In this document: positions 1-17,566 of the stretch, one piece after another
How positions within the stretch are numbered: the stretch's first letter is position 1
Layout of the letters: every line of letters starts with the position of its first letter
DNA from: a virus
Lineage: Duplodnaviria; Caudoviricetes
Length of the DNA stretch: 64,000 bases
IMG/VR virus record: IMGVR_UViG_3300020577_007133
Coordinates: 1-64,000 of that record
Direction: 5' to 3' (one strand)
Notes under the pieces: model-generated
Seen by the model: only the letters and a program-made list of their open reading frames with translations
Database searches by the model: none
Told to the model about the DNA's origin: nothing
Translations under genes and position numbers: made by a program

Positions 1-157
1 TAAGGCAACTTGTTCAAAAGATTACAGAGTAATTTGGTTAAAAGAGGAATATCCCCCCTATTGGGATGAAGGTTTAAACTTCAAAAAAGGTCATTCATCG
101 ATTAAGTACAGAAGTTATAAAACTTGGAAGTACAACCGAAAAACTCAATGGAAATAG
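1..157 (+). CDS. 3' end of small basic hypothetical protein (partial; ...SYKTWKYNRKTQWK*)
   Basis: Open frame from position 2 to TAG at 155-157. Confidence 0.6.
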   Translation, partial: KATCSKDYRVIWLKEEYPPYWDEGLNFKKGHSSIKYRSYKTWKYNRKTQWK

Positions 158-259
158 TATTCACGGGGATTGGAGTCCGTGTTAGGTAAGTCACTTTTGG
201 GTACATCTGCAGTAGAACTCCCATAAAACTAACACCTTGTGTGAATACTAAAATTAAAA

Positions 260-439
260 TGTGTTGTTCCCGATACGGTACGCAAACCGTTATAAGATGA
301 GGGGTACTAAAAATTAGAGTATAAGTTCTCTACAACACAGAGGTGTTCTTAACCTCAAAGCCGTGTTGTTCCCGTGAGAAAGGAAAGATACAGGTGTTAT
401 GGAAAATTACGTAACCAACACAGAGGAGTTCTCAACCTC
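260..439 (+). ncRNA. Two tandem related structured RNA units
   Basis: Both start GTGTTGTTCCCG, close with CAACAC and are followed by hairpin GAGG-NGTTCTNAA-CCTC (260-356, 363-439). Confidence 0.55.
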
Positions 440-443
440 AAAA

Positions 444-492
444 TGAGGTTCAGGTTGACGTGGTCGTAAAACGGTGAAAGTTTCCAACCTCA
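444..492 (+). ncRNA. Small three-way-junction RNA motif, copy 1
   Basis: Core AGGTTGAC..GTCGTAAAACG..AGTTTCC recurs at 29402-29460 with a different closing stem. Confidence 0.55.
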
Positions 493-632
493 AAATTAAA
501 TGGGGGGTAATACCAAGAATGAGAATGTTATGGGGTAACCTATATCGATGGTGTAATTCTCGGGTCTCCCATTTAATTAAAAAAATAATCTAAAAACTAC
601 GAACTTTTTTATAAATCCGTATATTTATTATT

Positions 633-1055
633 ATGGAAACAAAAGTATGTACATCCTGTAAAATTGAAAAACCAATAGAACAATTTTTATGGAAAAATAA
701 AGAAAAAGGTATTAGACATTATCCGTGTGGTGAATGTTATAAAGAAATACGAAAAAAAAGTTACGAGAAAAATAAAGATTATTATTTGAATAAAAATCGT
801 AAACGTAAAGAAAGTATTAATGATTGGTATAATGAGTTTAAGAAAGGAAAGAAATGTCATTTTTGTGATGAATCTGAACCGGTATGCTTAGACTTTCACC
901 ATTTAGATGGTACAACAAAAGAGTATAATATTGGAAGTATGGCTTATTCAACCTACTCAATTGATACTATAATGAAAGAAGTAGATAAATGTGTTATTTT
1001 GTGTTCTAATTGTCATAGAAAAGTTCACGCTAACATATTGAAATTGTCTCCATAG
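633..1055 (+). CDS. HNH-family endonuclease with N-terminal Cys/Zn motifs
   Basis: CHFC..LDFHH..LCSNCHRKVH; stop codon lies inside downstream tRNA-Arg. Confidence 0.8.
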   Translation: METKVCTSCKIEKPIEQFLWKNKEKGIRHYPCGECYKEIRKKSYEKNKDYYLNKNRKRKESINDWYNEFKKGKKCHFCDESEPVCLDFHHLDGTTKEYNIGSMAYSTYSIDTIMKEVDKCVILCSNCHRKVHANILKLSP

Positions 1056-1118
1056 TTTAATTGGAAAAACACTTGAATACGAATCAAGAGACCGGGAGTT
1101 CGACTCTTCCTGGGGACA
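1046..1118 (+). tRNA. tRNA-Arg(ACG)
   Basis: Cloverleaf; CTTGA-ATACGAA-TCAAG; GTTCGA T-loop. Confidence 0.85.
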
Positions 1119-1197
1119 CAAAAAAATCGTCCCGGTAACACGGGTTAAGTGACAGGGTGCCCGTCACGATAGGTTAAGCGATGTCCTATCAATTTAT

Positions 1198-1269
1198 GCG
1201 GGTGAGGCTGAGGTAGCCGGTAAGACTCCAAATCTTATGTTCGAGTAGATTCGATTTCTACCATCCGCG
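1198..1269 (+). tRNA. tRNA-Trp(CCA)
   Basis: TAAGA-CTCCAAA-TCTTA anticodon arm; GCGGGTG/CATCCGC acceptor. Confidence 0.85.
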
Positions 1270-1276
1270 CTAAAAT

Positions 1277-1366
1277 GGAGAATAGTCTAATATTGGTTTG
1301 TAGTGGCATCCTGCTAAGATGTTCCGGGTAAAACCGGTGAGGGTTCGATTCCCTTGTTCTCCACCA
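1277..1366 (+). tRNA. tRNA-Ser(GCT)
   Basis: GCATC-CTGCTAA-GATGT, long variable arm, encoded CCA. Confidence 0.9.
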
Positions 1367-1379
1367 TAAACATTTTTGT

Positions 1380-1408
1380 ACTTTTACAAAAGATTGTGAT
1401 ATTTATAG
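1380..1408 (+). promoter_or_regulatory. phage late promoter ACTTT-N13-14-ATATTTAT, representative copy
   Basis: TATTTAT precedes most structural and endonuclease genes on both strands. Confidence 0.7.
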
Positions 1409-1420
1409 TAAAAGGGTAAA

Positions 1421-2068
1421 ATGGGAAGAAAAAAACCTCATATACATTACATATACAAAACAACGTGTGATGTTACAAAGAGATATTATATCGGAATGCA
1501 CAGTACTACCAATTTAGAAGATGGTTATTTGGGTAGTGGTAAAAGATTACGACATTCTATTAGAAAATATGGTAAAGAAAACCATACAAAAGAAATTTTG
1601 GAATTTTTATCGACAAGAGAAGAATTAGTTATTCGAGAATCGGAAATTGTTAATAATATTTTGTTAGAAGATGTTTTGTGTATGAATTTGAAACCTGGAG
1701 GTCAAGGTGGGTTTATTAGTGAAGAACAACAAAGACATCGTTCAATTTGTGCAAATAAAAAACTTAATGAAAAATTAAAAAACGATAATATATTCAAAAA
1801 AAATTGGGTGTCTAAATTAAAGAATGGTTTAGTTAATAGTCATAATAATAAAAAATATAATAATTTAGAAAATTATAGTTGGTTAGGTAAAACACATTCA
1901 GAAGAATCTAAAAAGAAAATGTCCGATTCATCCAAAGGACAAGGTTCCGGAGTAACAAACTCTCAATTTGGTACTTGTTGGGTAACTAATGGTGTTGATA
2001 ATAAAAAAATAAACAAAGGAAGTGTAATACCTAATGGTTGGTGGTTAGGTAGAATTATAAAAAAATGA
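1421..2068 (+). CDS. GIY-YIG homing endonuclease (Seg-like, NUMOD3)
   Basis: YIYKTT..YYIGMH..YLGSG; GKTHSEESKKKMS repeat. Confidence 0.85.
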   Translation: MGRKKPHIHYIYKTTCDVTKRYYIGMHSTTNLEDGYLGSGKRLRHSIRKYGKENHTKEILEFLSTREELVIRESEIVNNILLEDVLCMNLKPGGQGGFISEEQQRHRSICANKKLNEKLKNDNIFKKNWVSKLKNGLVNSHNNKKYNNLENYSWLGKTHSEESKKKMSDSSKGQGSGVTNSQFGTCWVTNGVDNKKINKGSVIPNGWWLGRIIKK

Positions 2069-2072
2069 AGTT

Positions 2073-2276
2073 ATGAAGGTATTTGAGACAAAAGAATTTA
2101 TTAAAGAATTGGATAGAATGGGTGTGGTTTATACAATAGATTCAAATCCAAGTCCTGAAAAAATTGAAAAAATAAAAAAGAGTATAGAAAAAAGAGACGA
2201 GAGATTACGTCAAATGAGAGAGGATTATCGTTCAGGTAAATTTGACGATGTGATTAAGTCATTAAAGAATAATTAG
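2073..2276 (+). CDS. hypothetical protein
   Basis: ORF directly after previous gene. Confidence 0.6.
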   Translation: MKVFETKEFIKELDRMGVVYTIDSNPSPEKIEKIKKSIEKRDERLRQMREDYRSGKFDDVIKSLKNN

Positions 2277-2387
2277 TTCCCTCGCTTGTTCCGTCAAAGG
2301 GTATAAATGAGACATCGATTAACGGAACCCCAAATGGAGTCCTTGCCTTAGTAGGATAAAGATGTTATAAACTCAACTAATTAAATA

Positions 2388-2459
2388 CAGGGTGTATTCT
2401 CGGGGTGAGAAGCCTGCATTGGAGGCAGGAGGCGGAGAGTTCGACCCTCTCCACCCTGA
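2388..2459 (+). tRNA. tRNA-Pro(TGG)
   Basis: CCTGC-ATTGGAG-GCAGG; CAGGGTG/CACCCTG acceptor. Confidence 0.85.
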
Positions 2460-2522
2460 CGATAGAAGACCGTTACTAATTCATAGAAGGGCTATTTGAC
2501 CAAAGCGTAGAATTAGAAAAAA

Positions 2523-2598
2523 CTAGATGTTGGGGAGCCCGGTACCCCGCTTGCTTTGGGAGCAAGAGAACTCGTAGGTTCGAATCCTACCATCTAGA
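2523..2598 (+). tRNA. tRNA-Pro(TGG)
   Basis: CTTGC-TTTGGGA-GCAAG; CTAGATG/CATCTAG. Confidence 0.9.
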
Positions 2599-2695
2599 CG
2601 AGGTTCAAAATACGTGAGGGTTTACAAAATTAGCGTATGGTGAGGTTTAGTAAAGTTTATACTCCCGGATGAGAGTCATCCAAATAATTTTGCCA

Positions 2696-2767
2696 CGGTA
2701 CGTAACTCAGCGGTAGAGTGCTGAACTGATACTTCAGTGGTCGATGGTTCGATTCCATCCGTACCGA
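2696..2767 (+). tRNA. tRNA-Ile(GAT)
   Basis: CTGAA-CTGATAC-TTCAG; CGGTACG/CGTACCG. Confidence 0.9.
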
Positions 2768-2773
2768 CAACAA

Positions 2774-2845
2774 TCCCCCGTAGCAGACAAGTGTGGGCAA
2801 TTGGCTTTTAACCAGTGAGGACAGGAGCGTTACCTGTCGGGGGAA
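2774..2845 (+). tRNA. tRNA-Lys(TTT), atypical T-loop
   Basis: ATTGG-CTTTTAA-CCAGT; TCCCCCG/CGGGGGA; T-loop AGCGTTA. Confidence 0.8.
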
Positions 2846-2881
2846 CAAATAAAAAGAATGTTTAATTAAAAATCAAAAGTC

Positions 2882-3388: not shown

Positions 3389-3395
3389 AAAAAGT

Positions 3396-3442: not shown

Positions 3443-4285
3443 ATGGATAAATTAAAATTAATGTTTCAGGAGAATTGGAAATCAATATTGTTTTCTTATT
3501 CGTTATTCGCAATCAATTCAGTATTGATGGTTATGTACCCAAAAATTTTAGGTAATTCGATTGACCACTTAATCGCGAAAGACTATTCGTATATTTGGTA
3601 TTTAATTGCGACATTTGTGGCGATTATGTTTTTCGGATATATCAGTAGAATTTATGATACCAAAGTATTCTCCGGGATTTATAGACGATTCGCATCAAAT
3701 GAAACTCACAATCAAATTGAGAATGGTGTTGAAACAACAAAGGTTAATGGTAGATTAACGTTGATGCACTACATCGTTCAGTTTTTTGAACGAGATATGT
3801 TGGTTGTATTACAGACAATTATTGGTATTGTTGGTGCTATTTATTTCTTATCAATGGTGAGTTTGACAATTGTTGGATTTTTAGTTATAACAACCATTTT
3901 AATTTTGGGTGTGACGGCATATTATTCTCCGAAGATTGCAAATATCACTAGTCAATATAATGATTTATCTGAAGAACAAACTGATGTTATTGGAACGAGA
4001 AACATCTCATCAATAAATAATTTGTTAAGACGAGGTCAAAAACTCTCACTTAAAATGTCCGGATTGGACGCAAAATTCTCAATATGGATTCAGGCAATTG
4101 TGTATGGTAGTGTAACTGCGTTATTAACTTATTATGTGATGTTTAATAATGTCACGGTTGGTAGTGTGTTTTCAACGTATCGATATATGTTTGATTTCTG
4201 TAACGCTCTTCTTGGATTACCGGTAATTATTACCTCATATATCAATATTAAAGATGTTATCAATAGATTAGAAACAGAAAATTAA
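3443..4285 (+). CDS. ABC transporter six-TM domain protein (no nucleotide-binding domain)
   Basis: Six hydrophobic segments in ABC-exporter TMD spacing (..YPKILGNSIDHLI..); no Walker motifs. Confidence 0.7.
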   Translation: MDKLKLMFQENWKSILFSYSLFAINSVLMVMYPKILGNSIDHLIAKDYSYIWYLIATFVAIMFFGYISRIYDTKVFSGIYRRFASNETHNQIENGVETTKVNGRLTLMHYIVQFFERDMLVVLQTIIGIVGAIYFLSMVSLTIVGFLVITTILILGVTAYYSPKIANITSQYNDLSEEQTDVIGTRNISSINNLLRRGQKLSLKMSGLDAKFSIWIQAIVYGSVTALLTYYVMFNNVTVGSVFSTYRYMFDFCNALLGLPVIITSYINIKDVINRLETEN

Positions 4286-5133: not shown

Positions 5134-5335
5134 TAATAAAACACATAGAAAAACAAACAAGTAAGTGCGGTATATACCCGAGACAAAATATGGAAAGTGA
5201 AAGACCCCATACCTTACAACACTCCCAAGAAGTGTTATGTTTGTTGAGTATGATAAAGTAAATAGAATGTTTCAGGGATAAGTCTTCTGCAAGTCTATGG
5301 AAATATCCCAATCTTGGTGGATGTGTTTTTTTAAT

Positions 5336-5765: not shown

Positions 5766-5920
5766 CATAATTCTTATACCCACGAAAATGGGCTTGAACC
5801 ACCGAACGGAAAACGCGTTTCCTAATAGGGGTAATAGAGAAAATTAGATTCGGAGGCATCCGGGTTGTGTGAAAAAGTAGGGGGGTCGCCCGGCAGGGGA
5901 CCAATAAGTTTTATGTTAAA

Positions 5921-5998
5921 TGGTTAGGTGGTGCAATTGGTAGACACGTCGGTATTATAGATTAAGAGGATGTTACGGGTTCGAGTCCCGTCCTAACC
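5921..5998 (+). ncRNA. tRNA-like RNA without a canonical anticodon arm
   Basis: Perfect acceptor GGTTAGG/CCTAACC, D arm and T arm; no 5-bp stem with 7-nt loop between them. Confidence 0.65.
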
Positions 5999-6698
5999 AC
6001 AGAAGACGGAGAGTGAGCCAAGGGTTATTGACCGTTATGGTTCCTTGGGGGTCTCTCCCGAAGAAATAAAAAACAGATATATAACTTGCGTCAGTGGTAA
6101 TATGGATGTGAGGCTTGGAGTAATCAACCAAACCAAGAGACCGCCGAGGGTAGATAAGGACGTGATATCCATTATTCCCCAAGATGAGAATATCGGAAAA
6201 TCATTCTGTCTGTTTTTTTTAATTGGGTAACCTTTCCGGTGTAGCGAATCGGGCCATTCCGGTGAGAATGGTGTCATAGAATAAGGTTAATTGGAGTACA
6301 ACATATTGTAATATTTCGCGAAAAAAAGATATGTCAAGGCTCTCGGTGCGAATCCCCTGTTACCCACAAAAGTTTATCGATACGGTGAATACCGGCGATA
6401 ATCACCGTAAAAATACGGTGAAAGTAAATAAAAAGTTTAACATCTTGATGGTTGCCTATAACCAACGTATGATATAGGATAGCGTGTTGAAAGTGGTAAA
6501 CCTCGCCAATTGTAATCGATTAAGTTCAAAGGAAGATACGGCGTAGAGCATTAGGTGACGAACACGACGAAGTCCTAATCATTCCCACAAGAAGTAATTC
6601 TCAAGTAGCCCCATTACAAACCAGAGTGCGACAAAGATGTTAAATTTTTCATAAATAAATATAAAATTCCATAACAAATTGATATTTATATTATATAA

Positions 6699-6792: not shown

Positions 6793-7449
6793 ATGATAGG
6801 AATTTATAAAATAACAAGTCCTGTGGGTAGAGTTTATATCGGGCAAAGTATTGATGTTGAAAAAAGATTTAGACAATATCAAGGACTCTCACATTGTAAG
6901 AGTCAAGTAAGATTATATAACTCGTTAAAAAAACATACACCATATTCTCACATATATGAGGTATTAGAAGAATGTAGTTTTGAAGACCTTAATACCCGTG
7001 AGAGGTATTGGCAAGAACAATTTCAAGTAATGGGAAAAAAAGGATTGAATTGTAAACTAACTGCAACATCCGAACAGAAACAAGTAATGTCACAACAGGT
7101 TCGTAGTAAAATATCAAAAACTCTTACTGAGAATAATTTTTGGAAAGGTAAGTCACAATCTGAAGAACATATTAGAAAAAGAGTTGAATCACTATCAAAA
7201 CACGTTAAGACTAATGAACATAAACAAAATATATCAAAGGCTCTTAAAGGAAAACCTCTTTCTGATGAAACAAAAGTTATGATGTCCAAATCAAAAAAAG
7301 GTCAATTGAGAGACCATAACAAGCCGTTTTTTATTGACGAAATTGAATATAGAACATTGGTTGATGCTGGTCAAAAACTAAATATTCATCCTACTACTAT
7401 TAATCGTAGGTTGAAATCAGATAAATTTATTAACTATAAATATAAATAA
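6793..7449 (+). CDS. GIY-YIG homing endonuclease (NUMOD3 repeats)
   Basis: MIGIYKITSP..VYIGQS..RF; GKSQSEEH/GKPLSDETK repeats. Confidence 0.9.
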   Translation: MIGIYKITSPVGRVYIGQSIDVEKRFRQYQGLSHCKSQVRLYNSLKKHTPYSHIYEVLEECSFEDLNTRERYWQEQFQVMGKKGLNCKLTATSEQKQVMSQQVRSKISKTLTENNFWKGKSQSEEHIRKRVESLSKHVKTNEHKQNISKALKGKPLSDETKVMMSKSKKGQLRDHNKPFFIDEIEYRTLVDAGQKLNIHPTTINRRLKSDKFINYKYK

Positions 7450-7656
7450 TAAACACTCATTGTTGCCCGCTACGACCCGAGGGCGGGGTTGTTAAACTTT
7501 TTTTATTATCAATATTAATATGAATAAAATCACAATACCTCGAAGAACTTATCGTTTTCCTCTTATTATTAGGGAAATCTTTTCAATTCAAGTCCAAAAA
7601 CAACTTTACCTATCAACGAATTCGATTTGTTAGAATATTTATATTAAAAATCACAA

Positions 7657-7941
7657 ATGAAAAAATTTATTATTTCTGAAGAAGAAAAAAGAAATATTCT
7701 AAATCAATACAATATAAATGAAAATAATTTTCTAAAATTCAGATATACCGGTGACCAATATCCAACTTCCGAAATGTGTGATTGGGTTAGAAATGAAACC
7801 GAATATATGGAAGATTGGGATGAGTTAGATAGAGATTTACAAATGGATAAAATTAGAAATGATTTTTTTGATAAATTTCAAGAAGAACTAACAGATTTAA
7901 GTTATATGGAGATGTTAGATATTTTTTATAAATGTATTTAA
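7657..7941 (+). CDS. MKKFIISEEEK-family protein (putative internal head protein)
   Basis: Shared N-terminal leader; late motif upstream. Confidence 0.7.
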   Translation: MKKFIISEEEKRNILNQYNINENNFLKFRYTGDQYPTSEMCDWVRNETEYMEDWDELDRDLQMDKIRNDFFDKFQEELTDLSYMEMLDIFYKCI

Positions 7942-7943
7942 AT

Positions 7944-8339
7944 ATGAAAAAATTTATTATTTCTGAAGAAGAAAAAGACGATATATTGAATCAACATAAA
8001 GAAATTAAGGATAAACCTGAATTTCCTGAGGATAGAAGAACTTTGGATACCAATTTAAAATCATTTGATTTTACTCGTTTAAAATCTCAAGGTTTAACAC
8101 CATATTATGTTGAGACAAAATTGGGTAATAAGGTTAATATGGTTGAATTAACTAAACCAACTAAACAAGATTGGGGTACAAAACCAAAAGAAGTTTATTT
8201 ATTGACTCCGGATGAATATGAAAAAATTAAAAAATTAACGGATAATATAAATGAGATGATTGAACTCAAATTAAAACAAATTGAGTTATATAAACAATAC
8301 ATTCCGGCGGTTGCTTCAGAGATTATAAAGAAAAAATAA
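7944..8339 (+). CDS. MKKFIISEEEK-family protein
   Basis: Near-identical N-terminal DNA to 7657 gene; start at 7944. Confidence 0.7.
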   Translation: MKKFIISEEEKDDILNQHKEIKDKPEFPEDRRTLDTNLKSFDFTRLKSQGLTPYYVETKLGNKVNMVELTKPTKQDWGTKPKEVYLLTPDEYEKIKKLTDNINEMIELKLKQIELYKQYIPAVASEIIKKK

Positions 8340-8340
8340 T

Positions 8341-8757
8341 ATGAAAAAGTTAGTGATAACCGAAGAGGAAAAAAAGAATATTCTTGAACAACACTCAGAC
8401 GAACGTCAATCTAAGGAAGATAATATTATGTCTATGTTAGACCAAAATCCAAAACTTAAAGATTTAAAACAATTTGGGTTAAAATATAATGTAGGTTCAA
8501 TTAAAAATTTCTTAACTAAACAACTATCAAGAGAACATTGGAATCCGGAACATATGCCATTTCCATCAGAATTGAATATTTTGAATGTTCTTATCCAATC
8601 AAGATTAGTTAGATTTTATTTACACGAATTAATTAAAAAAAGAGGTGGTAACTATTGGTATAATTGGGAGAAAAAAATAAAAAAAGAGGATGTTGATAAC
8701 ATCCCAATCCCGGAAGCGTTATTTAACACCATAGTCCTTATTTTACAAAAGAAATAA
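8341..8757 (+). CDS. MKKLVITEEEK-family protein
   Basis: Shared N-terminal leader. Confidence 0.7.
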   Translation: MKKLVITEEEKKNILEQHSDERQSKEDNIMSMLDQNPKLKDLKQFGLKYNVGSIKNFLTKQLSREHWNPEHMPFPSELNILNVLIQSRLVRFYLHELIKKRGGNYWYNWEKKIKKEDVDNIPIPEALFNTIVLILQKK

Positions 8758-8758
8758 T

Positions 8759-9082
8759 ATGAAAAAGTTAGTTATAACTGAGGATTTAGAAAATCGAGTG
8801 ATGAATGACCAACATATTACTGATGAAATTAGTCGTAATCAAAAATTAAAAGGTCGGTCTAAATATGTTTTCAATGATAAAACACATAATTTAGAAACAT
8901 TTGGTTTAAGAAAATATAAAAGTGAATTTTACCCTCAGACAGTGTATTTTTTAACTCCGGAAGAAGTCGAATCATTCCACCAAGAAGAAATTCGAGTATA
9001 TAATTTACTTAAAAAGTTAGATAAGGCAAAAGAAACCATAATAAAATATATGGAATCTGTGGTAAGAAAAAAATTAAATTAA
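8759..9082 (+). CDS. MKKLVITE-family protein
   Basis: Shared leader; VYFLTPEE resembles VYLLTPDE of the 7944 gene. Confidence 0.7.
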   Translation: MKKLVITEDLENRVMNDQHITDEISRNQKLKGRSKYVFNDKTHNLETFGLRKYKSEFYPQTVYFLTPEEVESFHQEEIRVYNLLKKLDKAKETIIKYMESVVRKKLN

Positions 9083-9261: not shown

Positions 9262-9295
9262 AAAGTCCATCTCCAAAAGAGATGGATTTTTTTTT
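9262..9295 (+). terminator. Rho-independent terminator / attenuator
   Basis: AAAGTCCATCTC-CAAAA-GAGATGGATTTT plus T run. Confidence 0.85.
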
Positions 9296-9625: not shown

Positions 9626-9838
9626 ATGTCGGACAAAAAAACGATGAATGAAGAATTAGTGATGGAATATTCTCCCATCTTAGGTGTGACTTACGGATTA
9701 AAAAATGTTACTCCGGAAAATGGGGATAGTGAAGAAGAACGTGATGAATTACACGACTTTGATTTAGTTATGAATCTGATAGTCGGTGATTTAGACGAAG
9801 AAGAAAAAAAAAAGATTAAAAAAAATTTGGTAGATTAA
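9626..9838 (+). CDS. hypothetical acidic protein
   Basis: Own promoter; ATG at 9626. Confidence 0.55.
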   Translation: MSDKKTMNEELVMEYSPILGVTYGLKNVTPENGDSEEERDELHDFDLVMNLIVGDLDEEEKKKIKKNLVD

Positions 9839-9877
9839 AAAAGATTTTATATCTTTGTACCGGAATTAAAAATAAAC

Positions 9878-11061: not shown

Positions 11062-11472
11062 AACATTACAAGAGTCGTAAGCTATAATGACCCGGGCGGT
11101 TGTATCCGGACAATCAAAGTAGACAGATATCTTGTGATGGGGATAATAACCTACAACCGGCTCTGTTATCCTAAACATAAAATAGGAGTAATTAACCTAT
11201 CTTGGACGGGTTCGAAACCGTAAAGTAGTTAGAGTGTAGGCACGGCACGACCCGCTCGAGTAACTTGGAGTATTGAACGACGATAGTGTTAGTAGCACAC
11301 AATAGGGATAAAGGGCAAGTGAAAAAGGGGGTAAGTTTAAGGTTCGAGTCCTTATTAACTATCAAAAAAAAATTAGTGTAGTGTAAACGGAGAATCGACC
11401 GTTCTGTTTATTTAATCCCAATGGACGATTATGGTTTTTACCATCAGCTGGTCACTAATTTTTAACATACAT

Positions 11473-11548
11473 CGCAGGTGGGGGGTATAGAGTTTCCTCG
11501 AGTCTCATAAACTCGACGTAAGACAGGGGCGGTACCTGTACTTTGCTA
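11473..11548 (+). tRNA. tRNA-Met/Ile2(CAT), atypical
   Basis: CGAGT-CTCATAA-ACTCG; T-loop GGCGGTA; weak acceptor. Confidence 0.65.
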
Positions 11549-11564
11549 CAAAAAATAGACATTA

Positions 11565-11604
11565 TGTGTATAGGTTTTTCGGGTTGTGTATAGGATTTTC
11601 GGGT
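11565..11604 (+). repeat. 20-bp tandem duplication TGTGTATAGGWTTTTCGGGT x2
   Basis: Direct reading; between tRNA and HNH late promoter. Confidence 0.85.
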
Positions 11605-11625
11605 TTTTCGTGATATTTATATAAT

Positions 11626-12180
11626 ATGGAAGAATTAAATAGACATCAGAAAGCAGCGTTAGTAAGTAATACTAGACGTAGAGAAAAATCACTACAAGAA
11701 TATTATAGTAATCCTAATATTTGTAAGTGTTGTAATAAACCAATTCCGGTTGGTGAAAAACAAAAAGTTAGGGAAGTTAGGAGAAAGATTTTTTGTGACC
11801 ATAGTTGTTCGGCAACATTTAATAATCAATTACGAGAAATTAAAGAAAAGGTTAAGAAAATAAAAGAACCTAAACCTAAAAAAGAAAAATTTGAATTTAT
11901 ATTAAGTTTAACTAAAAAAGATTTAATAAGTAAACACGAAATTTATTATAAATTTAGAGCAGTAATTCGGAAACACGCACATTATGTGTATAATAAACAT
12001 CACGAACATCAAGAATGTAAAGTTTGTGGTTATGACACACACGTTGAAGTTTGTCATATAAAATCAGTATCATCTTTTAGTGATGATACTCTAATAAGTG
12101 AAATAAATTCTATTGATAATTTAGTTGGATTATGTCCTAATCATCATTGGGAATTTGATAATGGTAAGATAACATTATAA
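11626..12180 (+). CDS. HNH endonuclease
   Basis: CKVCG..EVCHIK..NLVGLCPNHHWEFD; FCDHSCS Zn motif. Confidence 0.9.
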   Translation: MEELNRHQKAALVSNTRRREKSLQEYYSNPNICKCCNKPIPVGEKQKVREVRRKIFCDHSCSATFNNQLREIKEKVKKIKEPKPKKEKFEFILSLTKKDLISKHEIYYKFRAVIRKHAHYVYNKHHEHQECKVCGYDTHVEVCHIKSVSSFSDDTLISEINSIDNLVGLCPNHHWEFDNGKITL

Positions 12181-12185
12181 TATAT

Positions 12186-12256
12186 TGCGGTTTGGTGTAA
12201 TTAGTAGCATAAGGGGCTCATAACCCCAAGGCGAGGTGCAAGTCCTTAATCCGCTA
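12186..12256 (+). tRNA. tRNA-fMet(CAT)
   Basis: GGGG-CTCATAA-CCCC anticodon stem and 1:72 mismatch. Confidence 0.8.
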
Positions 12257-12325
12257 GATAATCGAAGTTAATCCACCTCCACGTGGTGATTGTTGGAAAC
12301 AGGTTATGCTGGCTGAGAGATTAAC
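12257..12325 (+). ncRNA. HDV-like (theta) self-cleaving ribozyme at tRNA 3' end
   Basis: P1 GATAATC/GATTGTT with G1:U, P2 GTTAATC/GATTAAC, P3 ACC/GGT, L3 TCCACGT, P1.1 GG, P4 CAG/CTG, J4/2 CTGA (CNRA). Confidence 0.85.
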
Positions 12326-12355
12326 AAAAAATTTATTAACATTAAATACCTACGT

Positions 12356-12529
12356 ATGGCGACAGTTCAACAAAAGTCGAGACAAGCGAGAGCTTTAGAG
12401 ATGTTACAACATCAATTAAAAAGTGGTGTAAAAACCCAAAAAGGAACAAGGGACGTTAAAGTTCCACTAACCGATTTAGACAGAAAGAGGTTAGAAAAAG
12501 AGATTGGAATTTTACAATCCAAATTATAA
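12356..12529 (+). CDS. small basic hypothetical protein (57 aa)
   Basis: MATVQQKSRQARALEMLQHQL..RLEKEIGILQSKL; not in ORF track. Confidence 0.6.
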   Translation: MATVQQKSRQARALEMLQHQLKSGVKTQKGTRDVKVPLTDLDRKRLEKEIGILQSKL

Positions 12530-12618
12530 TAAAAAAATAGATGAATAGACCACATCCGGGATTAGTGATTTAATTAAAGGGTCTCATTCGGTACACAAGT
12601 CCGAAGTTCATCTTAACT

Positions 12619-12689
12619 GCGAGTATGGTATAAAGGTATTACATCATCCTGCCACGATGGAGATTCCGGTTCAATTCCGGGTACTCGCT
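12619..12689 (+). tRNA. tRNA-Gly(GCC)
   Basis: TCATC-CTGCCAC-GATGG; GCGAGTA/TACTCGC, U73. Confidence 0.9.
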
Positions 12690-12783
12690 CAAAATAGATT
12701 TGGGTGTAGGGTTATGATACGACATAACTCTTTCAATTTAATCGTAAAGATTGATAATCGCCGCAGCGAAATCTGTTTTATTT

Positions 12784-12857
12784 GCGACTTTGGTGTTCAA
12801 TGGCTAGCATATGACCCTTCCAAGGTTGAGGTACGGGTTCGAGTCCCGTAAGTCGCT
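12784..12857 (+). tRNA. tRNA-Gly(TCC)
   Basis: TGACC-CTTCCAA-GGTTG; U73. Confidence 0.9.
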
Positions 12858-13060
12858 CAAAATAGTGAAAAAGTAATTATATGAAGTAACCTTCGGGGAG
12901 ACTGCCGGAACCCTTTAACACATAGGTTGGTGAAAGTATAATGAAAGACAACGGCGCACCGGTCGTCCTCTCGGGAGTAGCTACCCGTAACGGATATGGA
13001 GATGATGTCATAGCTCCTTTAGACCGCAATGGTGAAAAATTTGGTCAAACTATTTTATTT

Positions 13061-13134
13061 GCGGGTATGGTGTTTAACGGCTAGCACGTGGGCCTTCCAA
13101 GTCTGAAGTTTCGGTTCGAATCCGAATATCCGCT
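13061..13134 (+). tRNA. tRNA-Gly(TCC)
   Basis: TGGGC-CTTCCAA-GTCTG; U73. Confidence 0.9.
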
Positions 13135-13308
13135 CAAAAAAATACGACGGAAATAGGTTAATCAGCACCTGTTATCACACATCTCAGGATACTACGTAAC
13201 TGCAGCGAATCGTAGGGAGAGATAGAAGGGAATAACCCGGGTCGGCCAACCCAAGTGGGGAAAAACTTAAAGTGGATTGTGGTGATGCTCCACAGCAGTA
13301 TTTTAATT

Positions 13309-13382
13309 GGTTCCGTAGTTCAACCGGATAGAATATCAGATTTCTAATCTGAGGGTTGGGGGTTCGAATCCCTCCGGAATCA
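13309..13382 (+). tRNA. tRNA-Arg(TCT)
   Basis: TCAGA-TTTCTAA-TCTGA. Confidence 0.95.
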
Positions 13383-13412
13383 CAAAATTTTTAATTTTAT
13401 TTGTTATTTTTT

Positions 13413-13676
13413 ATGAAAAAAATTGTTTTAAGTTTGATATTATTAGTATCTTTGGCATCTTGTACGGAGAATCAAAGAGTGAAAAGTTTTGGTGGAACCG
13501 GAACAATCAATTTACCTCAGGGTGAAAAATTGGTAAATGTAACTTGGAAAGAAGACCATCTTTGGACCATCACAAGACCAATGAGAGAAGGTGACGTTGC
13601 AGAAACTTACAAATTCCACGAGGATTCAAGTTTCGGAATTGTTCAAGGAACTTATAATATTGTTGAGACGAAGTAA
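13413..13676 (+). CDS. lipoprotein
   Basis: MKKIVLSLILLVSLASC lipobox. Confidence 0.75.
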   Translation: MKKIVLSLILLVSLASCTENQRVKSFGGTGTINLPQGEKLVNVTWKEDHLWTITRPMREGDVAETYKFHEDSSFGIVQGTYNIVETK

Positions 13677-13710
13677 TTGAAAAACGGATAGGTGAAAGTC
13701 CTATCAAACG

Positions 13711-13785
13711 CCTCCGTGGGCAAACTGGAAAAGCCGTCTGATTTAGGCTCAGAAGATTTTGTGGGTTCGACTCCCACCGGAGGTA
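13711..13785 (+). tRNA. tRNA-Leu(TAG), short variable arm
   Basis: TCTGA-TTTAGGC-TCAGA; GCCTCCG/CGGAGGT. Confidence 0.85.
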
Positions 13786-13893
13786 CAAAATACATTATCA
13801 TAACTCGGTGTGATACACCGCCAAATATCTCCTTAAACAACGTGGGAACTGCGGTTCTCCCAATGTGGCCGAAGTGATAATGTAAACTTAAAG

Positions 13894-14014
13894 ATAACTA
13901 TGTCGGAAGTGGTATACGAAGTGGTGTGTTAAATGTGGGAATAGACATAATCCCTAACCCGTAAAGGGCTAACTGCTTGTCTCTTGGTTACAGGTTCGAG
14001 TCCTGTTGGTTATC
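13894..14014 (+). ncRNA. tRNA-like RNA with about 45-nt structured insert replacing anticodon loop
   Basis: ATAACTA/TGGTTAT acceptor, D arm, AGTGGT/ACTGCT stem, ACAGG-TTCGAGT-CCTGT T arm. Confidence 0.65.
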
Positions 14015-14067
14015 AGTAGTTTAAGAGACAGAGCTGACTTCTACTTAAAAAAAATGCTCTGCGACAG

Positions 14068-14150
14068 GCCGGTGTCGCATAGAGGTTGATTGCACCTGAT
14101 TTGTAATCAGGAACTGAAAGGTCACGTTGGTTCGAATCCAATCACCGGCT
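14068..14150 (+). tRNA. tRNA-Thr(TGT), enlarged variable region
   Basis: CCTGA-TTTGTAA-TCAGG; GCCGGTG/CACCGGC. Confidence 0.85.
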
Positions 14151-14213
14151 CAAAAAAAGATAAAAAAGTTTTGATTAATTAAAATGATTATTTTATCTTT
14201 GTCGAAGAAAAAT

Positions 14214-14330
14214 GGGTAGATGGTAAATGGTAAAGCGTCCGGGGCGCCGGGAGATGAGGTTCGAGTCCTCGAAGTAGCCGGCAGGTGAAAAAGTATGGTA
14301 CTATTGTAGGTTCGAATCCTACTCTATCCA
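14214..14330 (+). ncRNA. tRNA-like RNA with two T arms and no anticodon loop
   Basis: GGGTAGA/TCTATCC acceptor; GAGG-TTCGAGT-CCTC and GTAGG-TTCGAAT-CCTAC. Confidence 0.6.
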
Positions 14331-14556
14331 CGAGTCGTTTTTTGGGGGTTCAGTTTGTGAGTCTGTTTTTTGTAGTTAAGAAAAATCAGTGGGGACAAAT
14401 AGGTAGTTAGAAGTTTCTTACCCTTAAAAGAAAGGATGGTTCGGTTTAGGACGAGATAGACAATACTTATTGGGGAAATCTCTCAAAAAAAATGGAAGAA
14501 TGGTCAAGGTTAACTCAAACCGAAGATGAATAACGTGTTCATCAGTTTTTCCGGTA

Positions 14557-14632
14557 GGTCAGGTGGAAGAGTTGGTACTTCGTTCGGTGGGAAACTGCCG
14601 AAAGGTCACGGGTTCGAGTCCCGTCCTGACTT
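14557..14632 (+). ncRNA. tRNA-like RNA with anticodon loop replaced by GAAA tetraloop
   Basis: Canonical acceptor, D and T arms; TTCGGTGG-GAAA-CTGCCGAA. Confidence 0.75.
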
Positions 14633-14857
14633 CAGGTCATCTCCTTTCGTTCTCTCCGTATGAGGGTATGGGTTCTTGGATGTAAAATGTTGAACTCGGA
14701 CGGGTGAAATAAACCAAACGATAATACGGCCTTTTTACAAATTTTTGTGCGGACAAAAAATACGGGTTCTTCGGTGGGTACCGGGTTACTTCCCTTAAAA
14801 TAACACAACTACTAAAAGTATGGGCACATATGGGGAAACCGAACCCGTGTCCTATAT

Positions 14858-14944
14858 GGTCAGGTGGCGTAATGGTAACGTAGATAGGTGATAGGGAATT
14901 TATCCTCCATCTGTCGGTCACAGGTTCGAATCCTGTCCTGACTA
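14858..14944 (+). ncRNA. tRNA-like RNA with extended anticodon-arm hairpin
   Basis: GGTCAGG/CCTGACT; GATAGGT/ATCTGTC enclosing an inner hairpin. Confidence 0.7.
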
Positions 14945-14949
14945 CAAAA

Positions 14950-15056
14950 CCTTCTGTAGTTTAACAAGAGCAAAACACAGAGACGAATACATCTCCCTAC
15001 GGTAACCATTCCAAGAATGTATTAAGAGTATGTGGGTTCGACTCCCACTGGAAGGG
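14950..15056 (+). ncRNA. tRNA-like RNA with large insert
   Basis: CCTTCTG/TGGAAGG, GTTT/AAAC D arm, AATACAT/ATGTATT stem with 24-nt loop, T arm. Confidence 0.65.
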
Positions 15057-15069
15057 CAAAAATAAAAAC

Positions 15070-15176
15070 AGTCAGGTGGCGGAATTGGTAGACGCTTTAA
15101 GGATATGTATAGGTGAAATTCCTATCACACAGGATATTGGCTGATGTCCATACAGGTTCGAATCCTGTCCTGACTA
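15070..15176 (+). ncRNA. Leu-type tRNA-like RNA with replaced anticodon arm
   Basis: AGTCAGG/CCTGACT, GCGGAATTGGTAGACGC D arm, ATAGG-TGAAATT-CCTAT insert, long variable arm. Confidence 0.7.
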
Positions 15177-15396
15177 CAATTGAGATTGAGATACTCAACA
15201 GATTTGGCATCGTTTCTTAAACAAAGATGTAGCTGACGCCTCAAACGGTTTTACAGAGGGGGTCTTCGGAAAAACGGCAAGAGAACCATCTTGACCTCCG
15301 AGTATATGGTTGACTTTTACAAGGTGTAAGAACCACAGGGTTTCAATAGGAAAACCGGAAATATCCACACCAAAGTAATCTCATTGGTGGAAAATT

Positions 15397-15477
15397 GCCC
15401 GGATGGTGTAACGGTAGCCACGCGGAGTTTAAGCCTCCGTGTCCATTGACGTGAGGGTTCGACTCCCTCTCCGGGTA
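15397..15477 (+). tRNA. tRNA-Leu(TAA)
   Basis: CGGAG-TTTAAGC-CTCCG, variable arm. Confidence 0.9.
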
Positions 15478-15555
15478 CTAAATGGTAATCGTAAATTTTT
15501 TTATAAAAAACTTAAACTTTGTGTAGGTTCGAGATATTTATAATAAAAGGATATT

Positions 15556-16377
15556 ATGAAATATAGACACACAAAAGAAGAACTTGAGGATGTAGTTAAA
15601 AAATCGTTATCAATATCACAAGTATGTAAAAATTTAGGTATTATTGCTGCGGGTGGTAATTATAAAACGATACAAAACAAAATAATTGAATTTGATATTA
15701 ATATATCACACTTTACCGGTAAAGGGTGGAATACTGGTGAAAGATATAGAAAAGTTATATTACCAATACCTTTGAATGAAATATTAGTAAAGGGGTCTGT
15801 ATATGGTAGTAGTAAATTGAAAAAAAGATTGATTGATGAAGGATTAAAAACTTCTAAGTGTGAGTGTTGTAATTTATCAGAATGGATGGGAAATCCAATT
15901 GGTTTGGAATTACATCACATCAACGGGGATTCAAATGATAATCAATTACATAATTTACAAATTTTATGTCCAAATTGTCATTCTATGACTGATAATTATA
16001 GAGGTAGAAATATTAAAACAAAAAAAACAGAACCAACTGAAGAATGGGTCAACACCACACTTAAATATGTTATAAATAAGAGTGATGATGAAACAAAACA
16101 AATAAAAAAACAAGAAATTAAACAATGTTTAACTTGTAACGGAGAATATACCGGAAAAAGTAAAAAATATTGTTCCATTGAATGTTATTACGAAGCAAAA
16201 AGAATAAATAACACAATCCCGAAAGTTCCTGAATTATTGGAAATTTTTGAAAAATATAAAACATTCACATCCGTTGGTCGTCATTACAATGTTAGTGATA
16301 ATGCGGTTAGAAAGTGGTGTAGAAATTATGGGATTATGGAAATGATACAAAATATTCAAACATTAAAGCGACAGTGA
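15556..16377 (+). CDS. HNH homing endonuclease with C-terminal HTH
   Basis: CECC..LELHHINGDSNDNQLHNLQILCPNCHS; VSDNAVRKWC. Confidence 0.9.
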   Translation: MKYRHTKEELEDVVKKSLSISQVCKNLGIIAAGGNYKTIQNKIIEFDINISHFTGKGWNTGERYRKVILPIPLNEILVKGSVYGSSKLKKRLIDEGLKTSKCECCNLSEWMGNPIGLELHHINGDSNDNQLHNLQILCPNCHSMTDNYRGRNIKTKKTEPTEEWVNTTLKYVINKSDDETKQIKKQEIKQCLTCNGEYTGKSKKYCSIECYYEAKRINNTIPKVPELLEIFEKYKTFTSVGRHYNVSDNAVRKWCRNYGIMEMIQNIQTLKRQ

Positions 16378-16480
16378 CACATAGACCACGTGGGGCACAC
16401 ATAAAATAGTATCAGTCGAAAGTCGAGGTGATAGACCACCATATGTTTGATATTTATTATTTAATGATTATATTACCGGT

Positions 16481-16990
16481 ATGAGAAAAATTAGACAAAA
16501 AAATGGTTCTTTACATAAAGGTCTCAAAAAAGTAAATATTGGAGATGATGTTTGGGTTTACGGGAGACAAAATTATGTACCCGGAAAAGGATTACATATG
16601 GTAATCTACGGACCTAACAGAAAAGAATATCACGTTTGGGGTAAGGATGTTACTGACTTAACTAAATCTGAAGATTCCGACCACTATGATAATTGGGGTT
16701 ATTGTAATCGACAAGGTAATAGAGCGATTCAATCAAAAGTTAAAATTTACATTTTAACAAATATTCTTGATAAAAAAGAAAATTGGTGTTTTGACTTGAA
16801 TAAAATTCCGGAAACGGGATATCTTAAAGTAATGTGTGAAAATGGAACAGTTAAGAATATTGATTTTAACGGTAAGTTTCTCCCACAAGAATTAGTGTCT
16901 AAAAGGTATACGTGGAAGGAAGGACAGATGTGGAATAGACCGGCTCATTCAACACAAACATTTGTAAATATAATTGGATATAGAAATTAA
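16481..16990 (+). CDS. hypothetical protein
   Basis: ORF with upstream late motif. Confidence 0.7.
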   Translation: MRKIRQKNGSLHKGLKKVNIGDDVWVYGRQNYVPGKGLHMVIYGPNRKEYHVWGKDVTDLTKSEDSDHYDNWGYCNRQGNRAIQSKVKIYILTNILDKKENWCFDLNKIPETGYLKVMCENGTVKNIDFNGKFLPQELVSKRYTWKEGQMWNRPAHSTQTFVNIIGYRN

Positions 16991-17051
16991 ATTAGTATGA
17001 AAAACCAAGACCCAAACTCCTCATAGTCCCTTATTGTTAGCAATAAGGATT

Positions 17052-17282
17052 ATGACTCAGAAATTGAGAATTTGGAGAGTAGTTCCCGTGAGATACGGTG
17101 TTCAGGCTCCCACGTTTTTCGTAGAAACTACGGAAGACGGACGTGAGAAGGCAGAAGAATCTGCAATGAGACAAGCAAGATTAAAATCAGGTTTGTCTAG
17201 GTTTAAGGAATGGAAATTCCGATTGGAGAAACTCTCTGTGAGGGTTGATAAATTTGGTAGGTATAAACCTCACCATCAGTAA
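17052..17282 (+). CDS. hypothetical basic protein
   Basis: ORF; ATG at 17052. Confidence 0.55.
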   Translation: MTQKLRIWRVVPVRYGVQAPTFFVETTEDGREKAEESAMRQARLKSGLSRFKEWKFRLEKLSVRVDKFGRYKPHHQ

Positions 17283-17372
17283 TCAATAAAAACCGCTGGG
17301 GGTTTCAAATTACTCAGTGTACTTTTTAGGTTAAAGTCGTGTAGGGTGTTTTTAACATCAAAACCTAAATTT

Positions 17373-17445
17373 CGTCCCGTAGCTTATGTGGTAGAAGCAC
17401 TTGACTCATAATCAGGAGAATTGGGTTCGACTCCCAACGGGACAA
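17373..17445 (+). tRNA. tRNA-Met/Ile2(CAT)
   Basis: CTTGA-CTCATAA-TCAGG; C1:A72. Confidence 0.85.
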
Positions 17446-17566
17446 CAATCGATATTTGAGTGTAAGCAAGGTATAATATCAGTCGTTGGACTCTTACAGG
17501 TCGCGAACGGTGGTCTGATTGTCGTTAATCAGTGTAGGTACCCGGGAACCCTACGTTTATCAGAAT

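Follow-up and report, generated by a model that had tools for sequence, protein, structure and literature searches.

The tRNA island that spans 17 kb of this Bacteroidota-type phage genome (~35% complete) holds genuine structured RNAs that are not tRNAs. At least five non-tRNA units in the window (the whole 64,000-nt stretch analysed) covary, are unmatched in Rfam 15 and are mutually unrelated, as a first-pass annotation of “distinct small structured RNAs” had proposed; not every unit that it listed is supported. Judged from sequence, at least four RNA families of the island appear to be new and phage-restricted. The explanation that we favour, to which we give an even chance, is that the cassettes are passenger RNAs in tRNA operons, freed by tRNA-end processing and acting in trans.

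All 14 listed units were found where they had been placed, on the same strand as the tRNAs (the plus strand, to which all features below belong), and they are GC-richer (0.35-0.49) than the window (~0.32). Each has the proposed closing helix in its MFE fold, but the boundaries had been picked to give one. Searched against Rfam 15, the cassettes yield no match, even at E<=10. Only three of the 14 fold better than dinucleotide shuffles (12538-12614, z -2.7; 12696-12774, z -2.8; 13791-13884, z -2.0), and the other eleven have z of +0.4 to -1.2. Comparative support is strong for 15180-15384, 12538-12614 and 13791-13884, which passed covariance-model tests, and moderate for 13140-13303 and 6436-6644, as well as for 17449-17560, which was absent from the earlier list. 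Six further units (2273-2380, 5139-5330, 5772-5909, 12696-12774, 12859-13057 and 14338-14490) are conserved at 72-100% identity with little variation among homologues, and three have no informative homologue. Cassettes with homologues differ from them by 1-2-nt indels, and cassettes are gained and lost between relatives, some natural variants lacking whole cassette-plus-tRNA-Gly units.

The R1 family has a sole copy in the window (15179-15392; 161.6 bits), a multi-pseudoknot RNA of ~210 nt defined by covariance model and covariation and flanked by a tRNA-like unit (15071-15177) and tRNA-Leu(UAA) (15397-15478). Across 68 distinct homologues both sides change in 33 of 37 pairs, which 0 of 500 shuffles match, and 87.5% of cells pair, against 67% when shuffled and 39-51% with slid partners. 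The “terminal helix” assigned to 15180-15384 was rejected, being a loop-loop pairing (GAGAU/AUCUC) of the first and last hairpins. R1 was found in more than 100 IMG/VR viral contigs, across which it keeps ~40 invariant or near-invariant positions, and is effectively absent from 185,579 prokaryote genomes, with one tiny MAG contig only. It starts 2-3 nt 3' of the upstream tRNA in 41/46 cases and ends 5-7 nt 5' of the downstream tRNA in 47/53, and the tRNAs on both sides vary in identity. The spacing is that of the tRNA-tRNA junctions in a related array (L004; 5-9 nt); R1 sits in a tRNA-like slot. No co-occurring protein family could be linked to R1, the commonest neighbour being present in 12/72 loci.

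In the R2 family (13791-13884; 93 nt) an H-type pseudoknot caps a long closing stem (P1+P2), and 94.9% of cells are paired, with two-sided changes in 6/18 pairs. It falls into five sequence types (A-E), through which three compensatory changes preserve the pseudoknot (ACCGC/GCGGU, GCCGC/GCGGC, GACGC/GCGUC, GCUGC/GCAGC). R2 lies 3' of tRNA-Leu(UAG) in 27/40 contexts, usually by 2-4 nt. The R3 family (12537-12617), an 81-nt three-way junction, lies 1-4 nt upstream of tRNA-Gly(GCC); here 98.6% of cells pair, and both sides change in 11/20 pairs, a count reached by none of 500 shuffles. Within the close clade it is 5' of tRNA-Gly in 14/14 contexts; distant members occur in L133, L169, L115 and L004 (15921-16004), the last abutting tRNA-Leu.

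Directly 3' of tRNA-Met (17373-17446) lies a pseudoknotted RNA of ~110 nt (17449-17560), the final RNA ahead of the terminator, for which 96.5% of cells pair over 30 pairs including the pseudoknot, with seven two-sided changes (1/500 shuffles). A homologue in the distant contig L004 is 85% identical, and the RNA is 3' of tRNA-Met in 15/22 contexts. The 164-nt unit at 13140-13303, between tRNA-Gly(UCC) and tRNA-Arg(UCU), comprises four sequence types, and at least three of its helices carry compensatory changes in an alignment judged by eye; a script counted 5/25 covarying pairs, not clearly above coding controls. The unit at 6436-6644, with both sides changing in 7/27 predicted pairs, is the 5' portion of a ~190-nt structured RNA, whose 3' end and terminator lie at 7462-7509 (100% identical to relatives; 7472-7492 in a terminator scan). 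A GIY-YIG endonuclease gene (6793-7449) parts the two; in relatives the RNA continues directly into the terminator, the equivalents of window positions 6611 and 7462 being joined in L003, L010 and L011.

The remaining cassettes are less informative. The one between two tRNA-Gly genes (12696-12774) has only 2-3 near-identical homologues, and natural variants without it also lack the following tRNA-Gly (joint 12684->12853). The unit at 12859-13057 follows tRNA-Gly(UCC) in 10/10 contexts, is 84-100% identical in six sequences with one covarying pair, and is itself missing in natural variants (joint 12860->13136). For 14338-14490 (77-100% identity in nine representative sequences) the 2/35 covarying pairs equal the shuffle mean. 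Upstream of tRNA-Ile(UAU), 5772-5909 shows 80-99% identity and one covarying pair; upstream of tRNA-Cys, 5139-5330 is weakly conserved (homologues 75-78% identical; 3/27 pairs covary); and upstream of tRNA-Pro, 2273-2380 has copies at 94-100% identity only (z +0.4). A single 98% copy was found for 156-249 (z -1.2), no homologue among 88 loci for 499-573 (z -1.1), and none in the relatives' loci for 11371-11461 (z -1.2). The stretch at 6001-6226, comprising a long hairpin immediately 3' of tRNA-Ile(UAU) and, after it, another conserved unit with a terminal U-run, is 78-98% identical in 14 loci, with 8/32 pairs scored as covarying and 7% incompatible cells.

That most gaps hold cassettes was an overstatement, as several contain tRNA-like units, an HDV-like ribozyme, or homing endonuclease and other ORFs. 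Unrecognised tRNA or tRNA-like units fill 11462-11555, 14490-14556, 14214-14331, 14949-15057 and 15071-15177, some of them degenerate or insertion-bearing, and abnormal anticodon arms occur in the island. Covariation identifies the first as a divergent tRNA with anticodon loop CUCAUAA (CAU), missed by both ARAGORN and Rfam: both sides change in 10/21 pairs, no cells are incompatible, and one homologue has a canonical T-loop. The second, a three-way junction of 62 nt, looks like a tRNA lacking the D-arm (both sides change in 5/17 pairs; 0.7% incompatible cells); it accompanies a downstream tRNA, itself with an odd anticodon loop, in 16/17 contexts. At 12257-12325 RF02682 detects a candidate theta-type HDV-like self-cleaving ribozyme (30.5 bits, E=3.9e-4 for 251 nt searched), with predicted cleavage 5' of G12257, 1-2 nt past tRNA-Met (12187-12255). 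Its putative P2 (GUUAAUC/GAUUAAC) forms a perfect 7-bp pseudoknot that the RF02682 model leaves unscored, and no homologue was found in relatives. The island also contains four endonuclease genes of the HNH and GIY-YIG types, and small minus-strand ORFs overlap some cassettes.

The island was proposed to be polycistronic, and the signals fit. A Bacteroidota-type promoter (TTTG-N-TAnnTTTG; 22 in the window against 3.8 expected) leads the main RNA block (9826-9857) and a second one, likewise host-type, lies inside the island (14170-14201), and the terminator scan found no strong plus-strand terminator ahead of the intrinsic one closing the island (17567-17592; 11-bp stem, then U-run); cassettes and tRNAs would thus be co-transcribed. 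Beyond it lies an RNA end-healing and sealing cluster (18709-23977; Pfam, with a PF09414 search of the genome), encoding a cREC domain protein (18709-19188), a metallophosphoesterase (19516-20334), a DRB0094-type RNA ligase (21532-22620) and an Rnl1-like ligase (22952-23977).

We picture long operons of RNA genes, ordinary tRNAs alternating with unrelated, independently folding passenger RNAs of 80-210 nt, each filling an array slot with the few-nt spacers of a tRNA. Because the spacers are the same, the host enzymes trimming the neighbouring tRNAs would free the passenger as well, with RNase Z (or a different 3' nuclease) cutting past the upstream discriminator and RNase P cutting at +1 of the downstream tRNA. 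The product would be a discrete, compact and stable RNA. In one slot, the HDV-like ribozyme would cut the trailer of its own tRNA. Two observations weigh against passengers: 13791, 17449 and 12537 are each tied to one tRNA on one side, which also fits a cis role, and single-sequence fold energies are unexceptional, with 9/14 listed units orphan or showing little variation.

Such a cis role is the foremost alternative, though an unlikely one: the cassettes would be tRNA maturation devices, new self-cleaving ribozymes or nuclease-directing structures that set the 5' or 3' end of the attached tRNA. The theta-type candidate in the same island sets a precedent, and the principle would then extend to other folds. 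What defines a theta ribozyme is cleavage <=5 nt from a tRNA 3' end; Bacteroidota make up ~90% of the predicted hosts, and DRB0094-family RNA ligase is over-represented in the genomes that carry these ribozymes (Kienbeck et al., 2024, PMC10879173); like them the cassettes abut phage tRNA ends, 12257-12325 fits the class, and a DRB0094-type ligase is encoded here. Side-specific linkage at fixed spacing (13791, 2-4 nt past tRNA-Leu; 17449, past tRNA-Met; R1, 5-7 nt ahead of a tRNA), highly conserved junctions, folds pseudoknotted like small ribozymes, and the adjoining end-healing and ligase genes all suit such devices. However, no Rfam ribozyme family matches any cassette even at E<=10, and the other cassettes have neither an HDV fold nor an HDV-like family match; 13791 pairs its 5'-most with its 3'-most strand, unlike the HDV fold, and several cassettes are found 5' of tRNAs, a position in which an HDV-type ribozyme would serve no purpose. 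R1 has many different tRNAs as neighbours on either side and is not tied to any single one, and host RNase P and RNase Z are enough for ordinary phage tRNAs.

We consider it improbable that the cassettes serve in anti-defence, as decoys or sponges for host tRNA-targeting nucleases or for other defences that sense RNA or are guided by it, or as antitoxin-like RNAs. In T4 a comparable RNA-repair module counters anticodon nucleases, and the surroundings here combine tRNA supply with RNA repair (Rnl1-like and DRB0094-type ligases, a cyclic-phosphate-processing domain, a phosphoesterase); tRNA-like units with abnormal anticodon arms share the island. The validated cassettes, however, are unlike tRNA anticodon arms, and only 18/39 large R1-carrying contigs have an RNA ligase, with a hit that passes the family cut-off in 7 of these. 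The first-pass suggestion of decoys or antitoxin-like RNAs found no support, the cassettes having no ToxI-like tandem repeats and no linked toxin gene, and the widespread R1 no co-occurring protein family. Slightly less likely still, in our view, is that the cassettes represent tRNA genes in decay or structured but neutral spacers, kept as tRNA separators or hitchhikers. Degenerate or insertion-bearing tRNA-like units in some gaps, the three orphans, the several cassettes with no structural signal, and the coming and going of cassettes with adjacent tRNAs would suit it, but for the validated families it is already contradicted: compensatory changes keep non-tRNA folds in R1, R2, R3 and the 17449 family, R1 holds its near-invariant positions, and 13791 is 95-98% identical between phages that share just 70-90% identity in the neighbouring protein. 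A DNA-level or artefactual signal (homing-endonuclease targets, recombination scars or small ORFs), to which the endonuclease genes, one of them splitting the 6436 RNA from its terminator, and the overlapping minus-strand ORFs might point, is very improbable and largely contradicted by strand-specific covariation with G-U pairs, which points to RNA helices, by the 1-2-nt indels, and by the placement of all units on the tRNA strand.

Non-tRNA small stable RNAs among phage tRNA genes have a precedent in species 1 and species 2 (RNA C and RNA D) of T4, which share a transcript with tRNAs, depend on the host's tRNA-processing machinery for maturation and, to our knowledge, have no assigned function. 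A GIY-YIG homing endonuclease gene, segB, is likewise part of the T4 tRNA cluster (PMC2330249), as this island holds GIY-YIG genes; the likeness is one of description, T4 having two such RNAs and a host of another phylum, and this island a dozen candidates, several pseudoknotted. GOLLD and ROOL (RF02032, RF03087), structured RNAs that also come from phages, are “often near tRNA islands” (PMC12286853), and a GOLLD copy lies in the same window (30017-30442). Like the cassettes they are phage or prophage RNAs with multiple pseudoknots and without dedicated protein partner (PMC12286853), but they are 4-10x larger and share neither sequence nor fold with the cassettes, on none of which Rfam gives a hit; GOLLD and ROOL are known to assemble into nanocages, and they lie beside arrays, whereas R1 is embedded in one (2-3-nt and 5-7-nt spacers). 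A catalogue from the same viral collection, IMG/VR, holds 8,495 unnamed covarying RNA motifs, tRNA-like ones included, without an account of tRNA-array passengers or fixed tRNA spacing (Fremin and Bhatt, 2023, PMC10690425); some families of this island may already be among them. If the cassettes are passengers of tRNA operons, they would most likely act in trans during infection, as RNA-only or protein-binding particles, in keeping with what has been proposed for GOLLD and ROOL and with the stable RNAs of T4.

The first 17.5 kb of the window contain 21 tRNAs, all on the + strand (ARAGORN), as well as four further tRNAs detected by Rfam, and the non-coding units interspersed among them include at least four RNA families that have covariation support and no counterpart in Rfam 15, the collection against which novelty is judged here; 8,495 unnamed RNA motifs from IMG/VR have also been catalogued (PMC10690425). 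The window was taken from one 104,772-bp viral contig, of which it is the first 64 kb; CheckV puts the completeness of this contig at about 35%, which makes a jumbo phage the probable source. Copies of the Bacteroidota promoter motif TTTG-N17-21-TAnnTTTG number 22 against 3.8 expected, with motif matches at the heads of RNA blocks (9826-9857 and 14170-14201), and a terminator scan placed strong + strand terminators only at 7472-7492, 9262-9290 and 17567-17592. Most ORFs of the island encode homing endonucleases (HNH and GIY-YIG), a YqeY-like protein or small proteins of unknown kind. Four tandem paralogous small ORFs with a common start region lie at 7657-9082 (repeat families D4, D11 and D12). 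Searches of this incomplete genome turned up neither a CCA-adding enzyme nor RtcB, and with the island as a blastn query, matches to GenBank phages were limited to tRNAs and endonuclease genes.

Further downstream, Rfam identifies a GOLLD RNA (30017-30442, the sole GOLLD match found) and a tmRNA (32474-32868). A second RNA island lies 5' of GOLLD at 28880-30020 and includes a 92-nt tRNA-Pro call, one unit closed by TGTGTTG/CAACACA, and another closed by GTGAATAC/GTATTCAC, which are the arms of the unit at 156-249 in reversed order; it also has in common with 444-492 a motif of about 50 nt. Two neighbouring units at 259-442 likewise have common ends, GTGTTGTTCCCG and CAACACAGAGG-GTTCT-AACCTCAAA, and differ in their interiors.

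The first-pass annotation had marked 14 cassettes in the gaps between the island tRNAs, and all 14 were confirmed in position and are GC-richer than their surroundings. Folding against dinucleotide shuffles distinguished three of them (MFE z < -2) and not the remainder. Because folding alone does not set the cassettes apart, relatives were collected from IMG/VR (approximately 250 loci, using three island proteins and DNA patterns as anchors), among which conservation of the cassettes ranged from none up to 95-98% identity; six of the listed units are conserved without being informative on structure, and for three there is no homologue. In a first script-level covariation screen (column-shuffle alifold z-scores) many units seemed positive; coding controls from the same loci gave z-scores between -2.5 and -22, with as many as eight "covarying" pairs at n=4. 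The column-shuffle z-scores were dropped as evidence of structure, given that coding segments score equally negative, and since these controls match both the z-scores and the low-depth counts of the screen, only analyses with pair-level controls were trusted: the accepted evidence consists of pair counts on model-based alignments, with slid and shuffled controls. The stretch is contained in 24 sequencing runs, eight of them labelled RNA; the four examined are assembled contigs, from which expression, ends and strand are unreadable and in which a stretch without coverage carries no meaning. A short contig (~13145-13248) with an adapter at 13248 has very high depth, a per-contig value that cannot rank genes.

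The annotation recognised none of the cassettes as a known family, and Rfam 15 matched none of them in the window and three relatives: at gathering and permissive thresholds alike the only matches were tRNAs, tmRNA, GOLLD and a weak HDV match. Models for hammerhead, twister, twister-sister, pistol, hatchet and HDV ribozymes matched none of the listed cassettes at E<=1 over 18.5 kb, nor any at E<=10 over 12500-15500, and the relatives were likewise negative. None of the 14 was called as a tRNA cloverleaf (RF00005) by ARAGORN or Rfam, even with introns allowed and the threshold relaxed; it is unlisted units neighbouring the cassettes that are tRNA-like. The annotation had not separated out a divergent tRNA at 11462-11555, whose anticodon is CAU, or a tRNA-like unit without a D-arm (14490-14556), and further gaps hold T-arm-bearing units with insertions. 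At 14557-14633 ARAGORN calls a tRNA whose "anticodon" has four bases, gaaa; in relatives the tRNA at this place has taat or tagt instead, and the 14490-14556 unit always comes before it.

The family and the covariance model of the RNA at 15179-15392 are referred to here as R1. Its three invariant blocks were combined into a loose search pattern, which matched 115 stretches of viral contigs; after removal of about seven chance matches, the covariance model scored 98 instances at 108-204 bits, the single window copy among them. In 68 distinct sequences, 33 of the 37 modelled pairs are changed on both sides, and 87.5% of cells pair, compared with 67% for shuffled and 39-51% for slid partners; none of 500 shuffles reaches the observed value. 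The RNA has several pseudoknots and around 40 near-invariant positions. In the fold as read here, the first hairpin, with GAGAUA in its loop, is followed by an H-type pseudoknot with the conserved strand UAAACAAU, then by two more stems, the loop of one pairing downstream of an invariant AGUA, by a small hairpin whose GUAAGA loop is invariant, by a U/A stem, and by a last hairpin with UAAUCUCA in its loop, complementary to the loop of the first. What the annotation took for the terminal helix of 15180-15384 is this loop-loop interaction between the first and last hairpins.

R1 occupies tRNA slots at fixed spacing: in 41 of 46 cases it starts 2-3 nt 3' of a tRNA that precedes it, and in 47 of 53 it ends 5-7 nt 5' of a downstream tRNA. 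The identity of the flanking tRNAs varies (Leu, Asp, Ser, Gly, Thr, Glu and others), and at loci with no downstream tRNA called by ARAGORN, an insertion-bearing tRNA-like unit is often next. One viral contig, L203, has two copies of the family (3853-4115 and 5837-6053), with an insertion of about 50 nt in one. More than 100 contigs of uncultured phages carry R1, and some of these are complete genomes, 170-318 kb in size. A scan of 185,579 prokaryote genomes with the R1 pattern found 30 matches, about the number expected by chance in a hand estimate (22 fixed bases, 596 Gb), and the one that the model supports as real is on a 711-bp MAG contig. Two R1 members used as blastn queries had no match in GenBank phages, and no protein family is present in the fetched flanks of more than 12 of 72 loci. 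R1 may well represent a new class of large RNA, for which it is a strong candidate. The more specific proposal, that it is a functional class of large RNA specific to big phages, acting as a ribozyme at the ends of its flanking tRNAs or as a self-assembling RNA-only particle, we consider improbable; as a particle it could be a smaller RNA akin to the GOLLD and ROOL cages, in which case the invariant loops GAGAU of the first hairpin and AUCUC of the last, which are complementary, would pair between molecules and not within one.

Across some 40 contigs the RNA at 13791-13884 (R2) keeps 95-98% identity, compared with 70-90% for the neighbouring protein. Model and pattern searches extended it to five sequence types, which covary in the closing stems, in an internal hairpin and in a pseudoknot, where ACCGC/GCGGU is replaced by GCCGC/GCGGC, GACGC/GCGUC or GCUGC/GCAGC. 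It is located 2-4 nt 3' of tRNA-Leu(UAG) in 27 of 40 contexts, and elsewhere follows other tRNAs or a terminator-like U-run.

The third RNA (R3, 12537-12617) is nearly invariant in close relatives, and its model identified distant members in four other contigs, of which the one in L004 abuts a tRNA-Leu. With the distant members included, the fraction of cells that pair is 98.6%, and both sides have changed in 11 of 20 pairs, a result reached by none of 500 shuffles. The fold is a three-way junction whose 8-bp closing helix is stacked directly on a 5-bp 3' hairpin, resembling the stacking of acceptor and T-arm in tRNA. A 3-bp triloop mini-hairpin at 12555-12563 covaries (AUC/GAU, ACC/GGU, CAC/GUG), and because its centre alternates between CCGG and CUAG, both self-complementary, the sequences hint that it may pair between molecules.

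Evidence of structure extends to other gaps. The unit at 17449-17560, absent from the first-pass list, is directly 3' of tRNA-Met and 85% identical in a distant contig, with 30 pairs kept, including a pseudoknot, and seven covarying; a wider search recovered only its own clade (18 contigs). Several helices of the units at 13140-13303 and 6436-6644 have compensatory changes, although the sequence types are few. In relatives the latter RNA is continuous into the terminator at 7472-7492, and in the window an I-TevI-like GIY-YIG gene (6793-7449) intervenes; L003, L010 and L011 do not have the gene, 6611 being joined to 7462. A group I intron made up of 6436-6644 and this gene was rejected: there is no Intron_gpI match in the window or in relatives with the uninterrupted RNA, no gene is interrupted, and the flanks are complete tRNAs. 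The TTG-start 82-aa "ORF" at 17034-17282 also behaves like an RNA. Its counterpart in the distant contig L004, flanked by yqeY and a tRNA-Met, is 81% identical; it has four covarying pairs and no incompatible cells, and is the sole "coding control" to behave in this way.

At 12257-12325 there is an HDV-like ribozyme candidate with every HDV element present in a nested double pseudoknot. P1 (7 bp), P3 and P4 come from the Rfam alignment to RF02682, and two elements were read from the sequence: P2 (GUUAAUC/GAUUAAC, a perfect 7 bp unscored by the model) and P1.1 (CC of L3 with the GG after P1). In the theta class J4/2 opens with the catalytic cytosine (PMC10879173), and here GCUGAGA aligns with GCUAAGA of the model and retains this cytosine. 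With the tRNA-Met model match ending at 12255 and the candidate starting at G12257, the predicted cleavage lies 1-2 nt after the tRNA, within the 5 nt of a tRNA 3' end that the class allows. The RF02682 score is 30.5 bits, below the gathering threshold of 44, so the element is HDV-like in fold and not filed under RF02682; as judged from its sequence, the candidate matches the published theta class. Together with an HNH gene and tRNA-Met it forms one block (11552-12330), which is missing in the closest relatives, L001 and L002, and partly present in L003 and L004, as if mobile.

The comparison of relatives shows that whole cassettes are present in some and missing in others. In contigs from other samples, joints of 12684 to 12853 and of 12860 to 13136 mean that a cassette is missing together with its tRNA-Gly. 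Directly 3' of the island is a four-gene cluster for RNA end-healing and sealing (18709-23977), encoding a cREC cyclic-phosphate-processing domain protein, a calcineurin-like metallophosphoesterase, a DRB0094-type RNA ligase with a PHA02142 OB domain, and a T4 Rnl1-like ligase. The DRB0094-type ligase is enriched among phages bearing theta ribozymes (PMC10879173). It is found in 18 of 39 large R1-carrying contigs at E<=0.001, seven of these above the family cut-off; the ligase thus accompanies R1 often but not always.

The usual reading of phage tRNA islands is codon supply or a countermeasure to nucleases. To our knowledge their well-known non-tRNA residents are only GOLLD, ROOL, theta ribozymes and the two T4 stable RNAs, species 1 and 2; most such residents are still without a function. 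The cassettes belong to this known kind, the structured RNAs of phage tRNA islands. Like GOLLD and ROOL, which are "often near tRNA islands" (PMC12286853), they are phage-encoded and beside tRNA islands, but at 75-215 nt they fall short of the >400 nt of those RNAs and have no match to the RF02032 or ROOL models.

The best-supported interpretation is that the cassettes are passenger RNA genes filling tRNA-like slots within long RNA operons, with precedents in GOLLD and ROOL and in the T4 species 1 and 2 RNAs. In L004 the tRNA-tRNA spacers are 5-9 nt and the cassette spacers equal these; when the flanking tRNAs are trimmed, the passenger RNAs would therefore be freed as well, with their ends close together. 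T4-type stable RNAs are co-transcribed with tRNAs and matured by RNase P and 3' processing; for the cassettes, what was observed in this regard is the layout of promoters, terminator and spacing. The first half of what the annotation proposed, structured RNAs released by tRNA processing, agrees with the passenger-RNA reading; release, stability and action in trans are inferred. The main rival is a role in cis, in the maturation of the tRNAs themselves, which is suggested by the theta-type ribozyme resident in the island and by the linkage of some cassettes to a tRNA on one specific side. The other half of the proposal, that they may be anti-defence or antitoxin RNAs, lacks the expected marks: there are no ToxI-like tandem repeats, the direct repeats of the island being tRNA arms, promoters and paralogous ORF starts, and no toxin family is found among the neighbouring proteins. 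Our search of the literature on the conserved cassette motifs found nothing relevant. The new families are defined and compact candidates for biochemical and structural work, and they suggest that tRNA arrays are a general platform for the expression and processing of phage RNAs.
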